Counted from the first letter of the stretch, positions 2 to 12,231 are shown. The stretch: DNA of 32,000 nt from Candidatus Harpocratesius repetitus (GCA_021498095.1 JAIZWK010000001.1:1350001-1382000); one strand, 5' to 3'. The notes: generated by a model from the sequence alone, not told the origin. Translations and numbers: made by a program.

Positions 2-1783
2 CTTGAACGTTTAGAATATAGGGGTTATGATTCTGCAGGCATTGCTATGGTCAATAAAGGTCACATAGAAGTGCGTAAAAAAGCAGGTCGAATAGCAGAT
101 ATCAATAAAGATGGATGGCTTGATTCTACTCCAGGAACATTTGGAGTTGCTCACACAAGATGGGCTACTCATGGAAAACCTGTATATAATAATGCACACC
201 CTCATGTGGATTGTACAGGCAAAATCGCTTTGGTACATAATGGAATCATTGAAAATTATCAAGATTTACGCAAAGAATTAGCGATGCGTGGGCATGCCTT
301 TCAATCTGATACTGATACTGAAGTATTTCCTCACTTAATTGAAGAATTCATGGGAAAAGGATTTGACTTAAAAGATTCAGTAATGGAAGCTGTAAAACGT
401 TGCAAAGGTGCTTATGGGATTGTTGTGATTCATGCTGATAATCCAGATTATATGGTTGTGGCGCGAAAAGAATCTCCTTTGGTTATAGGAATTATTCCCG
501 GAAAAACAACTTTCTGTGCTTCAGATATTCCTGCATTTTTACCTTTAACTCGAGAAGCAATTGTTTTGGATGATAATGAAATTGCCGTTTTACGACCTGG
601 TGAAGTGGAAATCTATCGGGTTAAATCGGGTGAAAGAATTCAAAATAATCATTTCCAAGTTAATTATAGCATAGATGCTGCTCAAAAAGTGCTCGATGGA
701 AAAGCCTACAAATGGTTTATGCATAAAGAATTGCATGAAGTTCCCAGAAAAATTCGTGATCAAATGAGTATGACTCAAGATCGCTTAGATTCTTTTGCCC
801 AAGCCATTTTAGATGCAGACCATGTGTTTATAACTGCTGCAGGTACCGCTTTTTATGCTGCTTTAGCTGGAAAATTTCAAATGACCCGGTTTGGGGGACC
901 TTATATACAAGCAATTTTGTGTTCTGAATTTATAGATGCTGTTCCAGAAATGAAACCAAATTCTTTAGTAATTGCGGTATCTCAATCGGGTGAAACTGCA
1001 GATACCATCGAGGCGGTTCGTTATGCGCGCGAAAAATTCGGTGCGAAAATTTGCTCTATTGTGAATGTGGTAGGATCATCGTTAACACGCTATTCAGATG
1101 AAGTTATTATTACTACTGCTGGACCTGAAATCGCTGTTGCTTCCCAAAAAGCTTATTGCACACAAATCACAGCGATGAGTTTGGTTGCATTGCGCATTGC
1201 AGAGTTAAGTCACAAATATGATCCGGCTCAAATTGAAGCGTTTCGTAAAGCTTTACTTGATACTGCGGATGTAATTGATCATTTAATTATTGAAGAAGGA
1301 AAAATCCGAGAAATTGGGCTTAAAATTGCACATGCCGATAACATTTATTTTCTTGCACGTGGATTGGGGCAGGCAGCATCCTTGGAAGGAGCGCTTAAAT
1401 TAAAAGAGATTGCTTATATTCATACTGAAGCGTATGCTGCAGGTGAATCAAAACACGGTCCAATTGCACTGATTGAAGAGGGTTTTCCGATTGTTTTTGT
1501 AGCAATTCCTGATCAAACTTATGATCGTCTTATCGGAAATATTATGGAAATGAAGAGTAGGGGTGGAATGATAATATCAGTAGTTGCTGATTATGATTCA
1601 AAAGTTACTGAAATTTCGGATTACACTATTAGAATTCCCATAGCGAATTCACCAGAAGCTATAGCTATGGCGGCTGTTCCTTTTGCATTTGTTTTACAAA
1701 CTATGGCTTATTTCATCGCTGATTCTAAAGGTCTTGATCCAGATAAACCCCGTAATTTGGCGAAAAGTGTTACAGTAAAATAA
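2..1783 (+). CDS. glmS: Glutamine--fructose-6-phosphate aminotransferase (isomerizing), 5' end outside the window
   Basis: The frame is open from nt 2 and reads [15 protein letters not shown] before the track's Met at 47, so the true start (with the catalytic Cys1) lies upstream. Motifs: [48 protein letters not shown]-terminal PRNLAKSVT. Confidence 0.97.
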
Positions 1784-4684: not shown

Positions 4685-5278
4685 TCATCCAGTAATTTCA
4701 ACCACTTCGCTTCCGCGTGTGTGGAATTTGGCATCCAAATAGATTAGTAATCCATGACCTCCATGTTGGAATACTATAGAAACAGGAAAACTGGTTGCAT
4801 TTTCAATTAAAGTTTTTCTCACACAAACATAATAATTTTCTTGACATATTGGACATTTACTTTGAATCCATTTTATTCGATTTTTTTGAGCATTTTCAAT
4901 ATTTGATTTCATTGTGCTTTTAAAGCCTTCGAAAATATTTGTCATTCCCGAAAAAAAATTTTGGTAAATAGCCCCATAAGAATTGAAAAATTGTTCTATA
5001 CATTCTTCCAATATCGCTTCCATCATTTGATATTGAATTTCAACATCTGCCATGATAAAGAAGATAATTCCTCGATCTTTAATGAAAACCATTCGTCTGT
5101 TTGGTTTTTCAATATGTAAAAAGAATTTTTCTTTAGCCATTTTTCTTGCTGCTTCAATATCCATTGGAAATACGTTTGTAGTTGGGCTGGTCCATCTGAC
5201 AAAATTAGTATTTGTGTCTAATCCAATATCTATGCATAATATTGAATTTTGAAGGTGTTCATAACTAGCTAGTGGCAA
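4685..5278 (-). CDS. Hypothetical protein; possible longin/roadblock-like N-domain plus C-terminal CxxC...HxxH domain
   Basis: 197-aa ORF with TTG start and protein-like composition. The N-part alternates beta strands and amphipathic helices; the C-part is CPICQENYYVCV...FQHGGHGLLIYLDAKFHTRGSE. Fold is judged by eye only. Confidence 0.7.
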   Translation of the reverse strand: MPLASYEHLQNSILCIDIGLDTNTNFVRWTSPTTNVFPMDIEAARKMAKEKFFLHIEKPNRRMVFIKDRGIIFFIMADVEIQYQMMEAILEECIEQFFNSYGAIYQNFFSGMTNIFEGFKSTMKSNIENAQKNRIKWIQSKCPICQENYYVCVRKTLIENATSFPVSIVFQHGGHGLLIYLDAKFHTRGSEVVEITG

Positions 5279-5359: not shown

Positions 5360-5938
5360 TTAGGAGTCAAGAGTCTCTTCGATTTCAATTACTCTTTTTA
5401 GTTTCAAGTATATTTTCTGTTCTTTTAAGTAATCTTCATCTGAAATTTTTCCATCTGCATAATCTCTATCAATTGCATCCATTTTTTTTCGTAAAGCGGT
5501 TAATTTTTTTCTTTTTGCAGCTGTTTGTTTTCGTCGTTGGGCTTTGTGATAATTCGTAATTGCATCTTTAACTAGCTTTGCAACTTTTTTATTAGGATCA
5601 TTAACTGCTTTTTCTAAATGTGGAAGTGCAATTTTTAATTGATCTGGATTAGATTTACTTAATTCGAGTAAATTTTCTGCTACTTTTAATCGTTCTTCTA
5701 ATAAAGGGCTTGAAAGAGATTCTATTAATTTTGGAATTGCAACATTTTCTAAAATATCATCTAAATATGCTTCTACTTCAGAAACTAGTTTTTTAGGAAA
5801 TTCTTTTTTATACATTGGGATACGTTTATCTTTCATAACACCTATAAAAAGTAAGGGCATTTCTGCATCCCAATCCTTCATTTTTTCCTTTTCTACTAAT
5901 TGTAGAATTCTTCCATCATCTGTTCTAAAGATTTTCAT
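5360..5938 (-). CDS. HEAT-repeat / coiled-coil protein with SHOCT-like C-terminus
   Basis: Two HEAT-like units (AIPKLIESLSSPLLEERLKVAENL; ALPHLEKAVNDPNKKVAKLVKDAI), a basic coiled coil, then IDRDYADGKISDEDYLKEQK. Its start overlaps the top6A stop (ATGA at 5938-5935). Confidence 0.75.
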   Translation of the reverse strand: MKIFRTDDGRILQLVEKEKMKDWDAEMPLLFIGVMKDKRIPMYKKEFPKKLVSEVEAYLDDILENVAIPKLIESLSSPLLEERLKVAENLLELSKSNPDQLKIALPHLEKAVNDPNKKVAKLVKDAITNYHKAQRRKQTAAKRKKLTALRKKMDAIDRDYADGKISDEDYLKEQKIYLKLKRVIEIEETLDS

Positions 5939-7200
5939 ATCCAGTCTCCAGAATAAAGTTTATTTGGTAAATATGTATCAGTTAGGTATTCAATTCCATG
6001 AGAAGATAGCGCTTGTATTTCTGCTTTCATTTTTGTTTTCTTCATTAGTTCTAAATCTTCTTTCCATTTTTTATTTGATTGTACATACGGTTCAGCTATT
6101 ATATCATCTAATCTTTTCATGTCTACTTTGTTCATAGGAATACGGCAGCTATAATCTACACCATATTCATCTAAATCTCTAGAAAGTACACCTAAAAGGT
6201 GCATATCAGGAGTTGCTAAGAAAGGCGATTCATAGGACAGTCGTTTTGAACCACGAATATAAACTGAATAAATATAATGTCCATATGGATCTGCATCAAC
6301 AACACAGTAAGTAGGAAGGCGAAGATCTCTATTAATTTTCTTTAAAAACATACGCGTTGCTACATTTCCTACTCCTTCAGCTGTTAATGCAATACATGGA
6401 TATTTTCGCCACCATTTTTCTTCAATAATTCGCATCATTGCAGCATCTTTTTCTAAAACTAAGATAAATTCTGCATCTGATTCAATCACTTCTACTTGAT
6501 CAATCATTGGAGTAATTGACCAAGATCCTGAACCTTGGGCATCTAAATCGATAATTTCATTACCATCTTTAAGTCGCAACCGTCCAACAGCAGAACCTCG
6601 TGCTTTTGCTACGATTCCAGTAGAATTTCGTGTTGTTTTTAATAATGTTGATGCATCTTCAATACTTGCATCACTAAATTTTTGATCTTGAAAAAGATTA
6701 ACATCACCATAGTAAACTTCACGTTTTGTCATATGTTTCCTTTTTCGTAGCAATTCATGAATAATTTCCAGAACTTTCATTAAGCGAGCAGTTTCTTGAG
6801 CTGATGTTAAGGTTAGTAATGATTTATTTGTCGTTTTATGCCCTAGTAATAAAAGATCTTGTTTTTCATCATAAATAATATTAGATGCAGTTCGGCTGGG
6901 AATTTTAAAAGTAGGATATCCTGTTATTTTAATCTGATTGACTAGATCTAAAGCAACTTCGTTTATTCTATTTAATGCTTCATTCATGGATAATTCATCA
7001 ATTTTAACTGATTTCGGCGGTATTTCATATGTAGTTGCACCACCTTCTTTTAGCCTTTCTTCTAAAAGTCTTCGAACAGGAAGTAAATCTTTCATTTCTA
7101 AGTTTTCTTTTAATTCACGGAGTGGAGTAACTACTTTAGATTTTGCTTTCGCTTTTGTCTTTCGTGGTGTTTTTCTCCGTTTTGAGTTCTTTTTTGCCAT
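5935..7200 (-). CDS. top6A: DNA topoisomerase VI subunit A (Spo11 homolog)
   Basis: TKREVYY (catalytic Tyr region), TOPRIM motifs LVLEKDAA and VDADPYG, C-terminal KAEIQAL...YLPNKL. Confidence 0.96.
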   Translation of the reverse strand: MAKKNSKRRKTPRKTKAKAKSKVVTPLRELKENLEMKDLLPVRRLLEERLKEGGATTYEIPPKSVKIDELSMNEALNRINEVALDLVNQIKITGYPTFKIPSRTASNIIYDEKQDLLLLGHKTTNKSLLTLTSAQETARLMKVLEIIHELLRKRKHMTKREVYYGDVNLFQDQKFSDASIEDASTLLKTTRNSTGIVAKARGSAVGRLRLKDGNEIIDLDAQGSGSWSITPMIDQVEVIESDAEFILVLEKDAAMMRIIEEKWWRKYPCIALTAEGVGNVATRMFLKKINRDLRLPTYCVVDADPYGHYIYSVYIRGSKRLSYESPFLATPDMHLLGVLSRDLDEYGVDYSCRIPMNKVDMKRLDDIIAEPYVQSNKKWKEDLELMKKTKMKAEIQALSSHGIEYLTDTYLPNKLYSGDWI

Positions 7201-7215
7201 TTGACTGCTATTCTC

Positions 7216-10200
7216 CTAATTTGGGTTAAGTTTCCAAAAAGTTCGTCCACCTTGAATTGTTAATAATAGTTTTTTTTCTCGAGTTAGTTGTTTTAGTTTT
7301 AATTGAAGATAGCGCGCATCTTTTACATCTTTGATATCTAAAAGTTTAATTAAATCTTTGATATTCAACCATTTGTGGTTCTTCATTGTTTGCAAGATTA
7401 AATCAGTTGTAATTACTCTAATTTTAGATTTTGGTTTTATTAGTTTTTTAGGTAATGATGCTTCGTTAACTTTCATTGATTGTGGGAGCATTCTCTGTTT
7501 TTTTTCTGAAATCTTTGATTTCGAAGTTATCTTCTGCGTTTTTTTTATTGATATTTTTTTCTTTGTCGTTCTTATTTCAGATTCTGATTGAGAGATCTGA
7601 TCTTTCAATTTTATTACTTTTTTACTTGATTTTTTCTTGTTTGATTTAGATTTCCACTGTTCAATGATTTCATCTACTTTTTGAACTGATTTTGGTGCAC
7701 TTGTTAATGAACTTTTATGATTTACTGCCTTTTTATTTGAAACAATATCAGCTTCTGTTGATTTTAGATGAGATTCGTTTACTTTAATTTTATTAATACC
7801 TTTTTCTTCTTGAAATTCGTTATTTGATTGTAATTCTATCGGTTTTTGCTGTTTTCGATGTTTTATCAATTCTGCTTTAATTTCTTCTGCAGATGGGCCA
7901 ATAAATTCTTCTTTTTTTTCTTCCAATTGTTCTGGAACTTCAAGTTTTCCTTCTAATCTTCTTTGAATTTGCACTTCTAATTCTTCACGTGTAGGCGCAT
8001 TTTCTGAATCTATGTTTTGTACAATATTTACTAAAGATGTCACAAAAATGGGAATATATTTCTCAATCACTTTTGAACGCTTTCTACGGTTTTCTCTTTT
8101 TTGTTTTCTGTTTTGATAATTTCTGATTTTTCTTCCAATGGTTTCTAAACAATACTTAATTTCTTTTAAGAGAACTTCGTCTTCAGCTAATGCATTTTTT
8201 GATTGAGATTTGAACATTAAATGAACATAAGGTCCTGAAACATTTACTAAGATACGGATTGAACCTTTTGGGATTCCATTATCAAATGTATCAAGTTTAT
8301 AGTTTTTCCAATTGACCATTTGACATCCTTTCCAAATAGCACAATCTGAATTATCTCTCATTTTTGGAGTTCTATTTACATATCGCATTAAAACTTGCTG
8401 GGCTGTTTTTGCTTGAGGTATTTTTGGACTAATTGCGATTCCAGCTTCGACCACAAATGCTAGACCTTTTCCACTGGTCGGAGGTCGAGTATGTCCATAT
8501 ATAAAATCTTCTTCAATATTATGTAAGACATCAAATTTTTGAAATAAATTACGATATTCTTCAATTTCTGCATTTATATCTTCAAGTAGTAAATCTTTAT
8601 ATGAAATTTCGTTCGAAAAGTACAGAGGTTGAAGAAATTTATATAATATTCTGTAAGAAAAATTCTGAGCTTCATTTTCACTTAGTGAAATAATTGTTTT
8701 TTCCAAATCATGAAATAAATCGGTTCGAAATGCAGGGTTTAAGTTAAACTCTTTAATTAATGTCGTTTCTAATACACTTGCTCCAATAGGAACTGCAGGA
8801 TCTGAAGGAGGGCTCATATATTTTTGGGCTTTAAATGATTTAAACAAAGCTTCTGTTTGTTTTTGAGTTAAAGAATTAGGTCGAGCATTTGAGATTAATA
8901 GTTCCTTAACACCTTCTTCTATTTTATCTGTAATACTTACATCAGTAACTTCATTAGATTCTCCTAAAACGAAATTTTTAACAACATTTGATAATGTTTT
9001 TTTCATTTTTCCTAATTGTTTCAAATCAGAAGTAATCTCTTTTTCTAAAGTGGATATTTTTTTCTTTTGGGCTGAAATTTCCTTTTTAATTGAGAGTGTA
9101 CTAATTTTTTTTGCGATTTTCTTTATTTGGCGATTTCTTTGTTTAATACTGTCTTTTATTTTATTATAAGATTTAACTATTTCCCAATATTGAGTAAGAT
9201 TGTCTTGATTATCGATATGATAAATTACCCATTTCTCTCTTGGTTTTTTCGCTCTTCCAAAAATTCGTTTTTCCTTTCGCGCAAAATAAATTTTTTCTAA
9301 TTCATTATGTGCCCATGTAATAATTCCATGTGATAAATTTAATAGATTTAATTCGCGCTCCAGTTCAATTTCTGCATTAAATAAAATATCCTTTGCCAGT
9401 CCTGAACTTAATCTAACAAAATTATCTTGCAAAAAAGCACTGAGTGTAAGTTTATTTGAAGTTCGTAATAAATCTTGAAAATCCCCTATGTTTACTGAAG
9501 AAGGATGAGGTAGAGCATAAGTTGGTTCGCGTGGAAATCTAGAAACTCTCCTTGGATAAATTTCTTCATTCCCATAAGGATCTAAAAATATAATTGTAAT
9601 ATGGGGGTTCGTCAGAGCAGTCATTTGAATATAAGAATCAATGAATCCTTTTCGATATTTGACATTAATATAATGTAATCTGATATAAGTTCCGTGTTCA
9701 AATGGACATTCGATTTCGGTAGGGGGGACTACATATTCTTTATTGTTTTTTGAAGTTGTGTAAAATTGCGAGCAAATTCCATATATGTGGTTGATATCTT
9801 TACTCACTACTGTTATCGGTTTACCTGTTGTATTTTGCGCATCGCTGAAAGCACTGGGTGATCCAAATCCTTGAGATCCACGAGTTTGTCTTAATTTTTG
9901 TGATTTACTTGAAGCAAGATATTTTCCAAATTTTTCTAAATCAATTGGTGCCATTCCTGTACCATTATCAAAAATTTCGAAATCATATTCAAAGACTTCT
10001 TTCTTTGTTTTTGATGAATCAGCAAAAACTTCTTGCGCTTCTTTTTCAGTAAGCTGAATAATGACAAATGGTTCACGTTCTACAAGTACTTGTATTGGAA
10101 AAATAAAGTTTTTAATCCCTTCCATAATATTTTGGACTTCTTGAGCCCTTTCTTCGTCTTTTTTCTGCAGAAATCTTAATTTTTTAGCTTCTTCATCATC

Positions 10201-10680
10201 TTCAGGTATTTCTTCTTCTTTCTTTTTTATTTCATCATCAATTATTATTTCTTCGTCTTGTTCACGATCTTCTTGGATTAGTGCAATGGAACCATCTTCT
10301 AATAAAGAGTATCCTTCATCATCAACCATTTCTGAATTTAATTTTTCTTCTAATTTCTGTAAATCTTCTTCACTTACTCCACCTCTTAAAAATGATAAAT
10401 TTTGAAGTAACAAATCATCTTTAAGTTTAAAGGTATATTCTGGATGGCGTTTTGATTCTTTCCAATAAAAGGATTCTACTGCATCTAGACTGTTGTCTAA
10501 AAATTCAATGCAATATTGAGTATGTTTATTAAGTCCAAAATCAAAACCAACTAATTGAGTCCTTTTTCTGAAGAATTCAGCCACAGATCCCTGGCGAATT
10601 GTCTCAATAGGTGCTTCTTTAGTTGATGTTTTTTTATGAGAAGTGTCAGATTTTTTTGAGGTTGAAGATTTTCGTGCCAT
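7216..10680 (-). CDS. top6B: DNA topoisomerase VI subunit B, greatly expanded (1154 aa)
   Basis: SVAEFF...LVGF N-arm, GHKL motifs EFLDNSLDA, DNGTG, QTRGSQGFG, HGT; PHP plus H2TH; transducer motifs TRPP...FVVEAG, RYVNRTP, FKSQSK. Lies 15 nt upstream of top6A. Confidence 0.95.
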   Translation of the reverse strand: MARKSSTSKKSDTSHKKTSTKEAPIETIRQGSVAEFFRKRTQLVGFDFGLNKHTQYCIEFLDNSLDAVESFYWKESKRHPEYTFKLKDDLLLQNLSFLRGGVSEEDLQKLEEKLNSEMVDDEGYSLLEDGSIALIQEDREQDEEIIIDDEIKKKEEEIPEDDEEAKKLRFLQKKDEERAQEVQNIMEGIKNFIFPIQVLVEREPFVIIQLTEKEAQEVFADSSKTKKEVFEYDFEIFDNGTGMAPIDLEKFGKYLASSKSQKLRQTRGSQGFGSPSAFSDAQNTTGKPITVVSKDINHIYGICSQFYTTSKNNKEYVVPPTEIECPFEHGTYIRLHYINVKYRKGFIDSYIQMTALTNPHITIIFLDPYGNEEIYPRRVSRFPREPTYALPHPSSVNIGDFQDLLRTSNKLTLSAFLQDNFVRLSSGLAKDILFNAEIELERELNLLNLSHGIITWAHNELEKIYFARKEKRIFGRAKKPREKWVIYHIDNQDNLTQYWEIVKSYNKIKDSIKQRNRQIKKIAKKISTLSIKKEISAQKKKISTLEKEITSDLKQLGKMKKTLSNVVKNFVLGESNEVTDVSITDKIEEGVKELLISNARPNSLTQKQTEALFKSFKAQKYMSPPSDPAVPIGASVLETTLIKEFNLNPAFRTDLFHDLEKTIISLSENEAQNFSYRILYKFLQPLYFSNEISYKDLLLEDINAEIEEYRNLFQKFDVLHNIEEDFIYGHTRPPTSGKGLAFVVEAGIAISPKIPQAKTAQQVLMRYVNRTPKMRDNSDCAIWKGCQMVNWKNYKLDTFDNGIPKGSIRILVNVSGPYVHLMFKSQSKNALAEDEVLLKEIKYCLETIGRKIRNYQNRKQKRENRRKRSKVIEKYIPIFVTSLVNIVQNIDSENAPTREELEVQIQRRLEGKLEVPEQLEEKKEEFIGPSAEEIKAELIKHRKQQKPIELQSNNEFQEEKGINKIKVNESHLKSTEADIVSNKKAVNHKSSLTSAPKSVQKVDEIIEQWKSKSNKKKSSKKVIKLKDQISQSESEIRTTKKKISIKKTQKITSKSKISEKKQRMLPQSMKVNEASLPKKLIKPKSKIRVITTDLILQTMKNHKWLNIKDLIKLLDIKDVKDARYLQLKLKQLTREKKLLLTIQGGRTFWKLNPN

Positions 10681-10932
10681 TCTGATTCAAAATTCCTTTA
10701 TTGAGAATAATTCTTCCATTTAATCATCCTATCCATACTCGACAAAATTGAAAGAATTTCTAACTAATTTTTCAAATCCGATCTATCTAACGATCTTAAT
10801 AAGGATTTGCATTTAAGCCCAATAAAAAAAATTTCTGATTTTTTCATCTTTTTTAGGAATAATTATGCACCTTAGTATTATATGATGGTATATTCTAAAC
10901 TTTTAATTACTTGCTTATATGTTTTCTTTATT

Positions 10933-12231
10933 ATGAATAATAACTGGCAATCTCAAACTCATCCTACAAAAGATATTCAAGGAATTACGAGTTCAAAACT
11001 ATATGGAAAGAAATTCTGCATTTGCTTAACTGGAAGTGTAGCTGTCATCAATGCACCAACACTAGCTAGGGAATTAATGCGACATGGTGCAGAAGTATTC
11101 ACAGTAATGACTAAAGAAGCTACTGATTTACTTCAAGCAGAATTAATGGAATGGGCAACTGGCAATCCAGTGATATTGGACATAACAGGGCAAATAGAAC
11201 ATATTTCAATGGCAGGAGAAAGGGAAAACAGTAAAGGTTTTGCCGATATGATCATTATTTATCCTGCAACAGCAAATACAATTGGAAAAATGGCTAATGG
11301 CATTTCAGATACTGCAGTTACAGCTATAACTACCGTAGCTTTGGGAAGTAAAACACCCATGATTGTTGTTCCTGCAATGCATGATTCTATGTATAAAAAT
11401 CCAATTGTTAAGGAAAATATTGAAAAATTGCGTTCCTTAGGAGTACGGATTGTAAATCCTAGAATGGAGGAAAATAAAGCAAAAATTGCTACTGCTGAAG
11501 ATGTATTGTTGTCTGTATTTGACTTTATTGATTTAAAAACAATTGAACAGGATTTTCAGAATAGAAAAGTATTGGTAACAGCTGGAACAACTCGAGAATG
11601 GATTGATCAAGTTCGATTTTTATCTAATCCTGCATCTGGTCGGATGGGAATTGCTATTGCTGAAGCGTTAATTGATAGAGGTGCCAATGTTGTTCTATTT
11701 TTAGGACCTTCTTCACTTAAACCATCTCCACATCCAAAACTTATTGTAAAACATCCTATATCAACACAAGATTTTGTTGATTTTGCTTCTGAAGAGTTGA
11801 AGAATGGGGATTATGATATTTTAATTTCTGCAGCTGCATTAGCAGATTTCACCCCTAAACAGATTTATAATGGAAAAATCACATCCGATTTAGAAGAACT
11901 GCAGATTAATTTAGTATCAACTCCTAAACTTATTAAGGTTGCACGTAATATTGCTCCTAAATTGTTTATTGTTGGATTTAAAGCAGAATCTCTGCTGCAG
12001 CAAGAAAAAATAATCGAAAACGCTTATAAACGATTAAAAAGTTCAAATCTTAATCTTATTGTTGCTAATTCTGTTCATCCTGAAGCAACTGATCGGGGTT
12101 TTAATGCAATAAGTAATGAAGTTTTCGTTATAAATTCTAAAAAAGAAATAAAACACTTTAAATTAGCATCAAAATTGGAAATTGCTCATCATATTCTGGA
12201 TTGTGTAAATGGCGAAATAAGTAATTCTTAA
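10933..12231 (+). CDS. coaBC: Bifunctional phosphopantothenoylcysteine decarboxylase / phosphopantothenate--cysteine ligase
   Basis: CLTGSVA, PATANTIGK, PAMHDSM, VLVTAGTTREWIDQVRFLSNPASGRMG, AAALADF, VGFKAE, IVAN. The ATG at 10933 is preferred over 10882 because the first 17 codons there are AT-rich and intergenic-like. Confidence 0.95.
   Translation: MNNNWQSQTHPTKDIQGITSSKLYGKKFCICLTGSVAVINAPTLARELMRHGAEVFTVMTKEATDLLQAELMEWATGNPVILDITGQIEHISMAGERENSKGFADMIIIYPATANTIGKMANGISDTAVTAITTVALGSKTPMIVVPAMHDSMYKNPIVKENIEKLRSLGVRIVNPRMEENKAKIATAEDVLLSVFDFIDLKTIEQDFQNRKVLVTAGTTREWIDQVRFLSNPASGRMGIAIAEALIDRGANVVLFLGPSSLKPSPHPKLIVKHPISTQDFVDFASEELKNGDYDILISAAALADFTPKQIYNGKITSDLEELQINLVSTPKLIKVARNIAPKLFIVGFKAESLLQQEKIIENAYKRLKSSNLNLIVANSVHPEATDRGFNAISNEVFVINSKKEIKHFKLASKLEIAHHILDCVNGEISNS

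Follow-up and report, generated by a model that had tools for sequence, protein, structure and literature searches.

The closest described relatives of the protein considered here are the canonical B subunits of DNA topoisomerase VI (Top6B) from Methanosarcina mazei (2q2e_B, 621 aa, with DNA complexes 9o0g/9o8p) and Saccharolobus shibatae (2zbk_B, 530 aa), in which strap, GHKL, H2TH and transducer domains follow one another in this order. In the M. mazei enzyme, residues R263, K268 and K308 of the H2TH domain contact the arms of the bent G-segment DNA, and the same domain is also part of the B-B interface (PMC13040014). C-terminal extensions of Top6B in gyrase-encoding Asgard archaea are described in the main text of Villain et al., 2022 (PMC9348778), and the main text of Brinkmeier et al., 2022 (PMC9665070) covers both an Asgard/eukaryote-type TopoVIB and the accessory factors of type IIB enzymes, namely the plant Topo VI partners RHL1 and BIN4/MID and the partners of Spo11. 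Neither of these two main texts mentions inserts in the GHKL domain, in the H2TH domain or at the start of the transducer, or a small co-operonic gene, and in the searchable literature we found no paper describing the inserts or the architecture of the long Top6B analyzed below.

The window (the whole 32,000-nucleotide stretch of DNA that was analyzed) carries a top6B gene (product P0001, Table 1) that forms a single reading frame with an ATG start, and its product is a genuine Topo VI ATPase (B) subunit of a Loki-type Asgard archaeon of the order Promethearchaeales (NCBI naming). With 1154 aa it is about twice the usual length, far above typical Top6B size as the preliminary description had remarked, and the doubling is due to conserved extra modules. 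The protein keeps the canonical domain order together with the ATP motifs, the switch lysine, the WKxY motif, the basic clusters of the stalk, equivalents of K268 and K308 and an adjacent top6A gene; it departs from the canonical forms in roughly 530-620 extra residues, in three inserts placed inside or between domains, and in a Lys-rich tail and winged helix where M. mazei has an Ig-like C-terminal domain. The AF2 model shows helices past the stalk and a C-terminal domain, which may correspond to those of the TopoVIB presented in the main text of PMC9665070. As with the Asgard proteins treated in the main text of PMC9348778, its genome also encodes gyrase (gyrB and gyrA), and its GHKL spacer is partly common to other Asgard Top6B.

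The assignment draws on family models, alignment and structure. The NCBIfam model NF003218 ('DNA topoisomerase VI subunit B') reaches 317 bits where 274 are required, and Pfam PF09239, for which 24 bits suffice, reaches 98.7 bits over aa 720-868. NF003218 is the only one of four family models whose cut-off is exceeded: NF011439 and NF011438 stay under theirs, as does TIGR01052 (279.4 bits, cut-off 380.7), the last because its match to the protein is split. M. mazei Top6B is matched by phmmer with E 2e-50. A Foldseek search of the PDB put Top6B structures in each of the first 16 ranks, with E between 5e-25 and 2e-18 and target-based TM scores of 0.47-0.67; the M. mazei and S. shibatae proteins head the list, and MutL, Hsp90 and GyrB follow at a distance. 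A single PF09239 match in the 4.36-Mb genome makes this Top6B unique there.

Alignment to the M. mazei and S. shibatae proteins places the N-box (E59/N63, LDA at 65-67), the G1 box (D238-N-G-T-G242) and the G2 box (R267-G-S-Q-G-F-G273), the WKxY motif reads W791-K-N-Y794, and the switch lysine K828 aligns with S. shibatae K427. Across 119 homologues N63, D238-G242, G268, G273, W791, Y794 and K828 are invariant, as are G45, F46, E59, D62, D66 and A67, and G271 and K792 are kept in at least 90%; the GHKL core (aa 201-345) has a majority-residue fraction of 0.80. The stalk helix (835-889) retains conserved basic clusters (R850/K851/R853/R858/R868). The two halves of the H2TH domain, split by insert 2, both align to M. 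mazei (query 346-439 and 600-644); R423, the counterpart of K268, is invariant and K620, the counterpart of K308, is present in at least 90% of homologues, and the equivalent of R263 is Q418, so that at one of these three positions a basic residue is lacking. The earlier claims that ATPase motifs and transducer lysine are retained and that the gene is unlikely to be a decayed one hold: this is an intact, elaborated B subunit. Because the GHKL motifs, strap, switch lysine, WKxY motif, stalk clusters, two of the three H2TH contacts and Top6A sites are conserved, catalysis is expected to be canonical, and the predicted activity of the Top6B/Top6A pair is ATP-dependent strand passage (relaxation, decatenation) as A2B2.

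Insert boundaries were set from the blocks of the phmmer alignment with M. mazei (29-70 with 14-55, 236-439 with 78-284, 600-644 with 288-332, and 724-888 with 335-495), the transducer aligning also to S. shibatae 332-492. The blocks break at the very places where three inserts had been located by eye, and this alignment with canonical Top6B, proposed earlier as a check, fixes them at aa 71-200, 441-599 and 646-723; to these is added a C-terminal extension of about 260 aa (896-1154).

Table 1. Features of the top6B locus, in positions counted from the first nucleotide of the window.
Feature	Coordinates	Strand	Basis
top6B, whole gene	7216..10680	-	NF003218, PF09239, 2q2e_B, Foldseek
Lys/Ser/Thr-rich N-terminal tail, aa 1-27, predicted disordered, variable	10600..10680	-	pLDDT 31-34; alignment occupancy 0.24 (aa 1-20)
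Strap and N-box helix of GHKL, aa 28-70	10471..10599	-	M. mazei 14-55 alignment
Insert 1, aa 71-200	10081..10470	-	phmmer gap, AF2
GHKL core with G1 (238-242) and G2 (267-273), aa 201-345	9646..10080	-	alignment, conservation
GHKL end and H2TH first half, aa 346-440, with R423	9361..9645	-	alignment; R423 invariant
Insert 2, aa 441-599	8884..9360	-	phmmer gap, structure prediction, profile
Basic beta-hairpin inside insert 2, aa 465-488	9217..9288	-	per-column statistics
H2TH second half, aa 600-645, with K620	8746..8883	-	M. mazei 288-332 alignment
Insert 3, aa 646-723	8512..8745	-	phmmer gap, AF2
Transducer, aa 724-895	7996..8511	-	PF09239, alignment, invariant residues
C-terminal linker, aa 896-1085	7426..7995	-	pLDDT 29-65
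Winged-helix-like C-terminal domain, aa 1086-1154	7219..7425	-	AF2, conserved residues
top6A (P0002), 421 aa	5935..7200	-	PF21180, PF04406, 2zbk_A
ARM/HEAT-like gene (P0003), 192 aa	5360..5938	-	co-occurrence, profile

Insert 2 is the clearest of the added modules. Its predicted structure consists of a four-stranded sheet, an antiparallel helical hairpin of 37+37 residues (492-528, 532-568) and a closing helix (581-594), with a pLDDT of about 90 in the full model and, when the insert is folded alone, a pLDDT of 88 and a pTM of 0.72. Overall identity among the homologues compared is only about 41-47%, yet the length of the insert is nearly constant (50-54 aa for the sheet part and 79-90 aa for the helical hairpin part in the 119 homologues), its alignment occupancy is about 1.0, and E470, G475 and E577 are invariant; here the reading of the inserts as conserved modules is well supported. 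The most consistently basic part is the beta-hairpin (R468, E470, K471, R472, G475, R476, S477, K479, R481, K483), in which seven basic positions are conserved at 81-99%, Lys or Arg occupies positions 472, 476, 479, 481 and 483 in 93-99% of the proteins, and E470 and G475 reach 100%. The helical hairpin (aa 492-570) carries a net charge of +14, in keeping with the strongly basic coiled coil that had been noticed in the H2TH domain, and K533 near its tip is Lys/Arg in 97% of homologues. Since the charge of this part spans 0 to +18 among homologues, basicity of the helical hairpin is not universal, and the insert as a whole has a median net charge of +10 and is mostly basic. A profile of insert 2 matched only Top6B among 1.84 billion representatives, and the two AFDB clusters that matched it are both Top6B; structural look-alikes of the hairpin are generic (prefoldin, the seryl-tRNA synthetase arm, SMC coiled coils). 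An intein reading was rejected: Pfam matches of the whole protein and of the inserts include no intein family, and insert 2 is predicted to be an integral folded module.

Insert 1 is layered, with helices (to aa 78, 86-93, 104-117, 175-196; flanking pLDDT 85-91) around an acidic disordered core at about aa 118-162 (pLDDT 34-40 in AF2). Its net charge is -18, and across the 119 homologues it is always negative (-3 to -39) at lengths of 78-329 aa. The distance from N-box to G1 is 170 residues here, 89-118 in other Asgard Top6B and 27-46 in canonical forms. The helical part is, by comparison of sequences, common to other Asgard Top6B, whose spacers carry little net charge (-10 to +7), and it is the acidic disordered stretch that is specific to the order. 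The preliminary description was therefore right to place an acidic segment inside the GHKL fold, and about half of that segment is not special to this Top6B; the 'strain-specific loops' that it had allowed for are found solely in the variable acidic center. Insert 3, like insert 1, matched no Pfam family; it is acidic and consists of two helices (668-683, 706-720; pLDDT 56-70) between the H2TH domain and the transducer sheet, and in homologues it measures 75-113 aa (median 111) with a median net charge of -14.

The C-terminal linker begins with two short helices (898-909, 931-943) and continues as a Lys-rich disordered stretch. Its net charge is +18, and its length ranges from 43 to 322 aa in homologues. 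Some of these have precomputed Pfam matches in the linker (PF07498/PF12949/PF02037), and the SAP/HeH-like motif of many homologues is degenerate in the window protein by alignment. The terminal domain is predicted by AF2 as helix-helix-helix-strand-strand (pLDDT 84-90), is winged-helix-like, has a net charge of +10 and conserves W1104, D1121, A1122, R1123, L1125, Q1126 and G1145. For the C-terminal region as a whole, homologues have a median net charge of +16 and are mostly basic.

Downstream of top6B, after 15 nt, lies top6A, present once in the genome (PF21180 183 bits, PF04406 67 bits). S. shibatae Top6A (2zbk_A) matches it with E 7e-64, its Y106 aligning with Y164 of the catalytic motif Y163-Y164, and the Toprim residues E250, D302 and D304 are invariant among homologues. 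The stop of top6A overlaps the start of P0003, whose family spans 172-211 aa. Coupling of top6B to this HEAT-like gene, noticed earlier in the window alone, extends through the order: the gene comes after top6A in all 26 loci whose Top6B carries insert 2, and families f1 and f2 have it in 72 of their 75 genomes (the Asgard sample of 301 genomes was sorted into families, given f numbers). It occurs in 0 of the 225 other Asgard genomes save one chance-level match in f16. Pfam matched nothing in the single P0003 sequence. The profile built for its family aligns with designed armadillo repeat proteins (E 7e-18 to 1e-15, profile positions 58-137) and, weakly, importin alpha (E ~1e-3), and P0003 holds only about two ARM/HEAT repeats. 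Gene order, from which the coupling is known, suggests that the co-operonic protein is probably an accessory factor working with the enzyme, and it may be a third Topo VI subunit. It resembles the eukaryotic type IIB accessory factors in idea, as a candidate for a small non-catalytic partner of a Topo VI core, and differs from them in being limited to one archaeal order; no sequence relationship is expected.

The long Top6B is not peculiar to this genome; it is the standard form of the order, with more than 500 database proteins, mostly about 1050-1400 aa among the matches listed; their source names are mostly Topo VI B, 'ATP-binding protein' or 'hypothetical'. In the 301-genome sample, full-length matches are confined to families f1 and f2. 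Other Asgard families have Top6B of 617-705 aa, in which neither insert 2, insert 3 nor the winged-helix tail was found. Insert 2, insert 3, the tail and the small ARM/HEAT gene have identical taxonomic distributions, and each genome examined has one Top6B. In sister orders within the class Top6B is long too, and the sequences added at the corresponding site are different and not homologous. Gyrase does not explain the architecture, because families with quite different Top6B (f7, f16, f24, f27) also have gyrase.

We consider it rather probable that the additions provide further nucleic-acid contacts on a canonical core, with the ARM/HEAT-like protein as accessory factor. In such an enzyme, the H2TH module (basic beta-hairpin plus helical hairpin) would lengthen a DNA-arm or DNA-crossing contact; insert 2 lies between M. 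mazei 284 and 288, i.e. between the K268 and K308 equivalents, and 37 residues per helix amount to about 5.5 nm (at 1.5 Å per residue). Clamping of DNA by this arm is suggested by its charge, its conservation and its position in the sequence. The flexible Lys-rich tail and basic winged helix could serve as a tethered DNA anchor, and the ARM/HEAT-like protein would act together with Topo VI. The acidic core of insert 1, in the ATPase domain, and insert 3 would most likely modulate the basic surfaces or bind basic chromatin proteins, which is the least supported step. Because these cells also contain gyrase, their elaborated Topo VI may have a specialized task, for example decatenation on chromatin, a speculation that builds on a published hypothesis.

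Other readings have to be weighed against this one. The insert 2 arm and insert 3 could be platforms for docking proteins (the ARM/HEAT protein, a chromatin- or SMC-type partner, or a second B subunit in B-B pairing), DNA being contacted by the canonical surfaces. Antiparallel helical hairpins often mediate protein contacts, the only structural look-alikes are the generic hairpins named above, the added modules share their distribution with the small gene, and the H2TH domain of M. mazei takes part in the B-B interface. However, the best-conserved element is the hairpin with seven basic positions, more typical of contact with a phosphate backbone, and the arm is flanked in the sequence by the equivalents of two conserved DNA-contact residues; we regard docking as unlikely. 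Equally doubtful to us is a role of the insert 1 core, with insert 3, as an intramolecular DNA mimic that keeps the basic arm and tail occupied until the right substrate comes, the autoinhibition suggested in the preliminary description, or as a binder of basic chromatin proteins such as Asgard histones. Its acidity in 119 of 119 homologues while length and sequence drift is typical of functional disordered regions, and the restriction of the strongly acidic stretch to this order speaks in the same direction. But low-complexity acidic expansions can be near-neutral, no structural prediction docks the loop (pLDDT <50) onto the basic modules, and across homologues acidic and basic charges are not inversely correlated (Spearman +0.19 to +0.41), which leaves a simple autoinhibition model unsupported.

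It is also conceivable, though in our estimate highly improbable, that drift fixed the inserts as decorations of this lineage and that they have little functional effect. Insert 3 and the center of insert 1 do differ in length between homologues and have low prediction confidence, and the unrelated additions of the sister orders at the same place suggest a permissive site. Drift sits poorly, however, with an insert 2 that keeps its length and invariant residues at this level of overall identity, with a conserved winged-helix domain, and with a Top6B that is the sole one in each genome examined.

Beyond topoisomerases, human MORC2 is a GHKL-family ATPase with an inserted antiparallel coiled coil whose basic residues are proposed to bind DNA. 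The comparison, drawn in the preliminary description, is apt as an analogy, both proteins being GHKL ATPases with an inserted basic antiparallel coiled coil, and fails as kinship: the Top6B hairpin sits in an H2TH domain, a domain absent from MORC proteins, and Top6B structures lead the fold matches. A MORC-type reading of the protein itself was rejected (HATPase_c_3 23.4 bits, under the cut-off of 25; no MORC among the best 50 structural matches listed).

Within the phylum, enlarged Topo VI forms of families f9, f24 and f18 share the core and the addition of DNA-binding-type modules. They differ in that the modules are HhH repeats, terminal rather than internal, and in that the f9 enlargement is on Top6A, where 4-8 HhH motifs are added at the N-terminus; in f24 and f18, giant Top6B of 2311 and 2289 aa have repeats of HhH type in a C-terminal extension. 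A search of f9, f24, f18, f7 and f16 gave no small ARM/HEAT gene, save for the chance-level match already mentioned. DNA-binding appendages on Topo VI are therefore, given these convergent enlargements, a recurrent theme in the phylum. Still larger Top6B frames, noted here for their size only, occur in f16 (3,365 aa) and f7 (at least 3,788 aa).

Archaea rely on topoisomerase VI (Topo VI) as their main type II topoisomerase; the meiotic Spo11 machinery descends from it, and the Topo VI of plants is related to it. The long protein P0001 is a real, intact B subunit of this enzyme (Top6B) with a canonical catalytic core, and it is encoded together with Top6A (P0002) and a small ARM/HEAT-like protein (P0003; gene positions in the table). 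The NCBIfam model NF003218 matches P0001 with 317 bits (cut-off 274) and Pfam PF09239 with 98.7 bits (cut-off 24), its best matches among PDB sequences are the Top6B of M. mazei (E 2e-50) and S. shibatae (E 5e-37), and a Foldseek search with its AlphaFold2 model returned Top6B in every one of the top 16 matches. That P0001 stays below the cut-off of three of the four curated NCBIfam Top6B models follows from the inserts, which split the profile matches. The partner P0002 is likewise a clear Top6A (PF21180, 183 bits; PF04406, 67 bits; 2zbk_A at E 7e-64), in which Y164 is aligned with the YY motif of S. shibatae and no variation is seen at the Toprim residues E250, D302 and D304. Because the genome, in which the window lies within a single 4.36-Mb contig, has exactly one PF09239 match, P0001 is the cell's sole Top6B; there is also a single Top6A Toprim match, and a search across the genome for a second copy of top6B or top6A found none. 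A gyrB-gyrA pair lies elsewhere in the same genome.

We aligned P0001 to the Top6B of M. mazei and S. shibatae. The HMMER match to the M. mazei protein is split into four blocks, which fixes the boundaries of three insertions, aa 71-200 (insert 1), 441-599 (insert 2, here also called the arm) and 646-723 (insert 3), and of a C-terminal extension that starts near aa 896 (the tail). The in-frame insertions therefore lie where the preliminary description had put them, and its picture of a giant Topo VI B subunit with intact catalytic motifs is borne out by profiles, alignment and conservation alike: the N-box (E59, N63), G1 (238-242) and G2 (267-273) are present and conserved in 119 homologues, where they are mostly invariant, and so are WKxY (791-794) and the switch lysine K828 (K427 in S. 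shibatae), conserved in the same set. The stalk helix of M. mazei contacts DNA through basic residues that include R457, K458, K460, K465 and K475 (PMC13040014). In the alignment their counterparts are R850, K851, R853, R858 and R868, and M. mazei H461 and K471 align to Asn. An intein-containing host protein was considered and rejected on Pfam searches of the whole protein and of the isolated inserts and tail, the latter giving nothing beyond sub-threshold coiled-coil noise.

Positions of the three genes in the window, and of alignment blocks and structural elements in P0001 (residues), with N-box to G1 spacings
Feature	Position or length	Strand	Remarks
P0001, top6B ORF	7216-10680	-	1154 aa; first of three tightly packed minus-strand genes
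P0002, top6A ORF	5935-7200	-	421 aa; 15 nt downstream of top6B
P0003 ORF	5360-5938	-	192 aa; start overlaps P0002 stop
HMMER match block 1 of four	29-70		M. mazei 14-55
HMMER match block 2	236-439		M. mazei 78-284
HMMER match block 3	600-644		M. mazei 288-332
HMMER match block 4	724-888		M. mazei 335-495
Insert 1, flanks	N-box helix prolonged to aa 78; helices 86-93, 104-117, 175-196		pLDDT 85-91
Insert 1, acidic disordered core	about 118-162		pLDDT 34-40
N-box to G1 spacing, canonical-type cores	27-46 residues		spacer charge about neutral
N-box to G1 spacing, other Asgard Top6B (families f4, f5, f9, f17, f21)	89-118		charge -10 to +7
N-box to G1 spacing, window's order	147-302 residues		spacer charge -17 to -46
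Insert 2, strands	446-449, 452-455, 465-472, 481-488		pLDDT about 90
Insert 2, antiparallel helical hairpin	492-528 and 532-568		pLDDT about 90
Insert 2, closing helix	581-594		pLDDT about 90

The long form is widespread within one order. A word-indexed search found more than 500 relatives, mostly of 1050-1400 aa among the matches listed, and the nearest named homologue among these is that of 'Candidatus Harpocratesius sp.' (92% identity). Long Top6B are present in the cultured Loki-type Asgard archaea Lokiarchaeum ossiferum (1138 aa, 59%) and Promethearchaeum syntrophicum (1123 aa, 58%). All relatives whose source is given with a phylum come from Promethearchaeota or one of its candidate phyla, and Harpocratesius itself belongs to Promethearchaeales in the NCBI taxonomy. 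In 301 Asgard genomes, whole-query matches came from this order (families f1 and f2), and 16 partial-match loci of other families encode Top6B of 617-705 aa that are devoid of inserts 2 and 3. The frame lengths of these 16 loci are from our own ORF calls, on which we relied because the open-frame field of the genome search exceeded them in family f9, where it over-read (for example, 1449 for roughly 686 + 746, the adjacent top6B and top6A). Mapped over the Asgard sample, the three inserts of the preliminary description, together with the tail domain that we read as a winged helix, prove to be standard for the window's order. Some long-form proteins from metagenome-assembled genomes (MAGs) carry the NCBI names 'Hodarchaeota' or 'Hermodarchaeota', and one such genome has the same operon; since the long form is confined to the window's order in the GTDB-based sample, we did not take these names to mean that it ranges more widely. 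Long Top6B also occur in two sister orders within the class, in families f3 (locus L048:2594-6637 (+), 1348 aa) and f4 (L011:2-3409 (-), 1136 aa), with about 660 and 460 residues, respectively, between the GHKL domain and the transducer. Our profiles for inserts 2 and 3 and for the winged helix do not match these f3 and f4 proteins, and we therefore regard them as a separate, different enlargement at the same site.

Insert 2 is a folded module that is found in Top6B only and carries a conserved basic hairpin. It hardly varies in length, the sheet part spanning 50-54 aa and the hairpin part 79-90 aa, and modelled by itself from a 70-sequence sub-alignment it reaches pLDDT 88 and pTM 0.72. The best-conserved residues sit in the hairpin 465-488, with E470 and G475 at 100% and positions 472, 476, 479, 481 and 483 Lys or Arg in 93-99% of homologues; K533, adjoining the tip of the helical hairpin, is Lys or Arg in 97%. 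A profile of the insert, searched against 1.84 billion representative proteins, gave 25 matches, of which 19 reach E 1e-10 or better. Seven of the 19 are long Top6B that were in our set before; of the other 12 we scanned the eight longest, and each of them has Top6B domains and carries the module where it is expected, the remaining four being proteins of 163-247 aa. The weak matches are multi-stretch coiled-coil noise. Foldseek against the PDB gave nothing at E 0.001 or better (best 0.16), a wide VIA-align search returned generic helical hairpins only (Z at most 8.2, in the noise range of helical models), and among the AFDB clusters the insert matched two other Top6B and nothing else. These fold searches used the insert as a whole, and we make no case for a novel fold. 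Across the 1.84 billion representatives, the AFDB clusters and the PDB, insert 2 was found in this Top6B lineage only and never as a separate domain.

What the arm might do is suggested by its position. In a cryo-EM study of the M. mazei enzyme bound to a DNA minicircle, the arms of the bent G-segment are gripped by the H2TH residues R263, K268 and K308 (PMC13040014). K268 corresponds in the alignment to the invariant R423 and K308 to K620 (at least 90% conserved), while R263 aligns to Q418. Insert 2 falls between M. mazei residues 284 and 288, and so is placed, as judged from the aligned sequences, between two retained DNA-contact residues of one small domain. It is mainly for this reason that we favour a role in DNA contact: the arm and the tail may add contacts to DNA, which for the arm we take to be about an even bet.

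The tail begins with a Lys-rich, disordered linker (net charge +18) and ends in a conserved basic helix-helix-helix-strand-strand domain (aa 1086-1154, pLDDT 84-90 in the AlphaFold2 model), which on the model we read as a winged helix. That model was run from the alignment of the 119 long homologues and has mean pLDDT 71 and pTM 0.59. In many f2-type homologues (e.g. P0036, P0039, P0040, P0066-P0068) the linker has a SAP/HeH/Rho_N-like motif, as called by precomputed Pfam matches (PF07498, PF12949, PF02037), of which P0001 and its close relatives keep the last helix only (window 7426-7995 (-)).

The remaining inserts are acidic. Insert 1 varies from 78 to 329 aa among homologues, and its net charge, -3 to -39, is negative without exception. 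The N-box to G1 spacing forms two layers (see table), so about half of this insert is an older Asgard feature. The preliminary description had counted the whole as an acidic insertion; on the spacing and charge of the sequences, the acidic stretch is the order-specific part, the other half being common to other Asgard Top6B. Insert 3 is modelled as two helices (pLDDT 56-70) and spans 75-113 aa across homologues with a median charge of -14, the window's genus having the short version. In a test of charge compensation, the Spearman correlations between the acidic inserts and the basic parts are weakly positive, not negative (+0.19 to +0.41, confounded by sequence relatedness), and give no support to stoichiometric autoinhibition. 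With low confidence, we suggest that the acidic parts modulate the contacts of arm and tail or bind basic proteins.

Enlargement of Topo VI is not peculiar to this order. Frames for giant Top6B in families f24, f18, f7 and f16 (loci L044-L047) run from 2289 to at least 3788 aa. The two that we scanned, in f24 and f18 (L045:1797-8729 (-) and L047:2938-9804 (-)), have a compact canonical core in their first roughly 540 residues and, after it, a C-terminal extension of roughly 1,750 residues with HhH-type repeats (RAD51D_N, HHH_5). In f7 and f16 the frames that include the transducer are larger still, at 3,365 aa and at least 3,788 aa. In family f9 it is Top6A that is long, at 658-844 aa beside a Top6B of 654-705 aa (L003:6476-8713 (+), L005:558-3089 (-), L002, L004, L013-L017), and in two scanned proteins the added residues form an array of 4-8 HhH motifs at the N-terminus (4-5 HHH_5 stretches and up to 8 HHH; PF14520 at E 3.5e-47 and 2.7e-56). 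Modules of DNA-binding type have thus been added to Topo VI more than once among Asgard lineages, which indirectly makes a DNA-related role of the Loki-type additions more plausible.

The long form also co-occurs with gyrase, consistent with a suggestion of Villain et al., 2022. GyrA is present in 5 of 6 genomes of f1 and 64 of 69 of f2, also in f3, f4, f7, f16, f24 and f27; families f9, f14, f5, f17, f21, f22 and f29 lack it almost entirely. Gyrase-positive families outside the window's class have a quite different Top6B. At the f24 locus L045 the giant top6B directly follows gyrB and gyrA and is itself followed by top6A. In several Asgard genomes (for example G165:C17, G183:C59, G186:C10, G026:C1) the match to GyrA breaks at profile position 92/93, the pattern expected of an intein near the catalytic tyrosine; the frames are reported as 939-1738 aa, by the same length field that over-read frames elsewhere.

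The coupling of top6B to a HEAT gene, noted in the preliminary description, extends through the order. Homologues of P0003 occur in 72 of the 75 genomes of f1 and f2, and the 225 other Asgard genomes gave none but one chance-level match (E 4e-5). In 22 extracted operons top6B is followed by top6A and then by the small gene, the frames of the last two mostly overlapping by a few bases (at one locus the small gene is 3.7 kb off), and the arrangement recurs with the three most diverged insert-2 Top6B of the profile search and in one 'Hodarchaeota' MAG (family-profile E 1e-57 to 1e-78), so that the small gene accompanies the insert-2 Top6B operon at 26 of 26 loci. The profile of the small family matches designed armadillo repeats (E 7e-18, about two repeats), flanked by a conserved N-terminal region of about 45 residues, a basic helix and a short conserved C-terminal helix. 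The genomic evidence, strong for a functional link with Topo VI but not bearing on binding, makes the small protein a candidate accessory factor; that it is a true subunit we think rather unlikely. A complex prediction with Top6A, Top6B 426-725, the winged helix and P0003 gave ipSAE of 0.19 and 0.20, lower than the mark of 0.32, which counts neither for binding nor against it.

P0001 is thus a variant of a known enzyme with an order-wide three-gene operon. The ARM/HEAT-like protein might be a stoichiometric subunit, docking on the arm, on insert 3 or the tail of Top6B, or on Top6A, and arm and tail might serve it in recognising DNA crossings, or DNA that is bent, on chromatin with bound histones. 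Such a three-component topoisomerase VI of Lokiarchaeales-type archaea, with a docked ARM/HEAT subunit, is a tentative reading that we rate as rather unlikely. If true, it would be an independently evolved archaeal counterpart of the dependence of plant Topo VI and Spo11 on accessory factors; and were arm and tail DNA sensors and the small protein a subunit, the system would show how a type IIB enzyme comes to select its substrates and to work with accessory factors, two matters that are unsettled for Spo11 as well as for the plant enzyme. To our knowledge, all structural and mechanistic work on Topo VI concerns two compact enzymes, those of S. shibatae and M. mazei. In Loki-type Asgard archaea the sole B subunit is of double size, has a folded basic arm beside the H2TH residues with which the M. 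mazei enzyme grips the DNA arms, and keeps a conserved co-operonic partner gene. A practical effect is on annotation: public database copies are often named 'DNA topoisomerase VI subunit B', and many merely 'ATP-binding protein' or 'hypothetical protein'.

Parts of this architecture have been touched on before. As far as their texts were available, Brinkmeier et al., 2022 describe an Asgard TopoVIB that has a C-terminal domain and one more helix in its transducer, and a TopoVIA with an additional helix at the N-terminus (PMC9665070), Villain et al., 2022 report globular C-terminal extensions in gyrase-encoding Asgard archaea (PMC9348778), and a 2025 replisome study presents an Asgard Top6A/Top6B phylogeny and a motif insertion in Top6A. 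The available main texts of these studies and of reviews make no mention of the GHKL, H2TH and transducer-start inserts or of the small gene, and as far as the searchable literature goes the long Top6B architecture is undescribed.

Beyond the small gene lies P0004 (window 4685-5278 (-)), a 197-aa frame with a TTG start, a CxxC pair and a Longin match of 17.3 bits (below cut-off), the fourth gene of the string. L. ossiferum (52% identity) and G089, a genome from the same genus, keep it at this place, and in P. syntrophicum the place is taken by a gene of 291 aa that is unrelated to it. Upstream, a divergent gene of 449 aa occupies window 10882-12231 (+); P. syntrophicum, L. ossiferum and two more relatives have a Flavoprotein/DFP (CoaBC-type) gene at this position. 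At its opposite end the block is bordered by the gene for leucyl-tRNA synthetase in P. syntrophicum, L. ossiferum and a third relative, and from these shared block-end genes we conclude that the wider neighbourhood is conserved.
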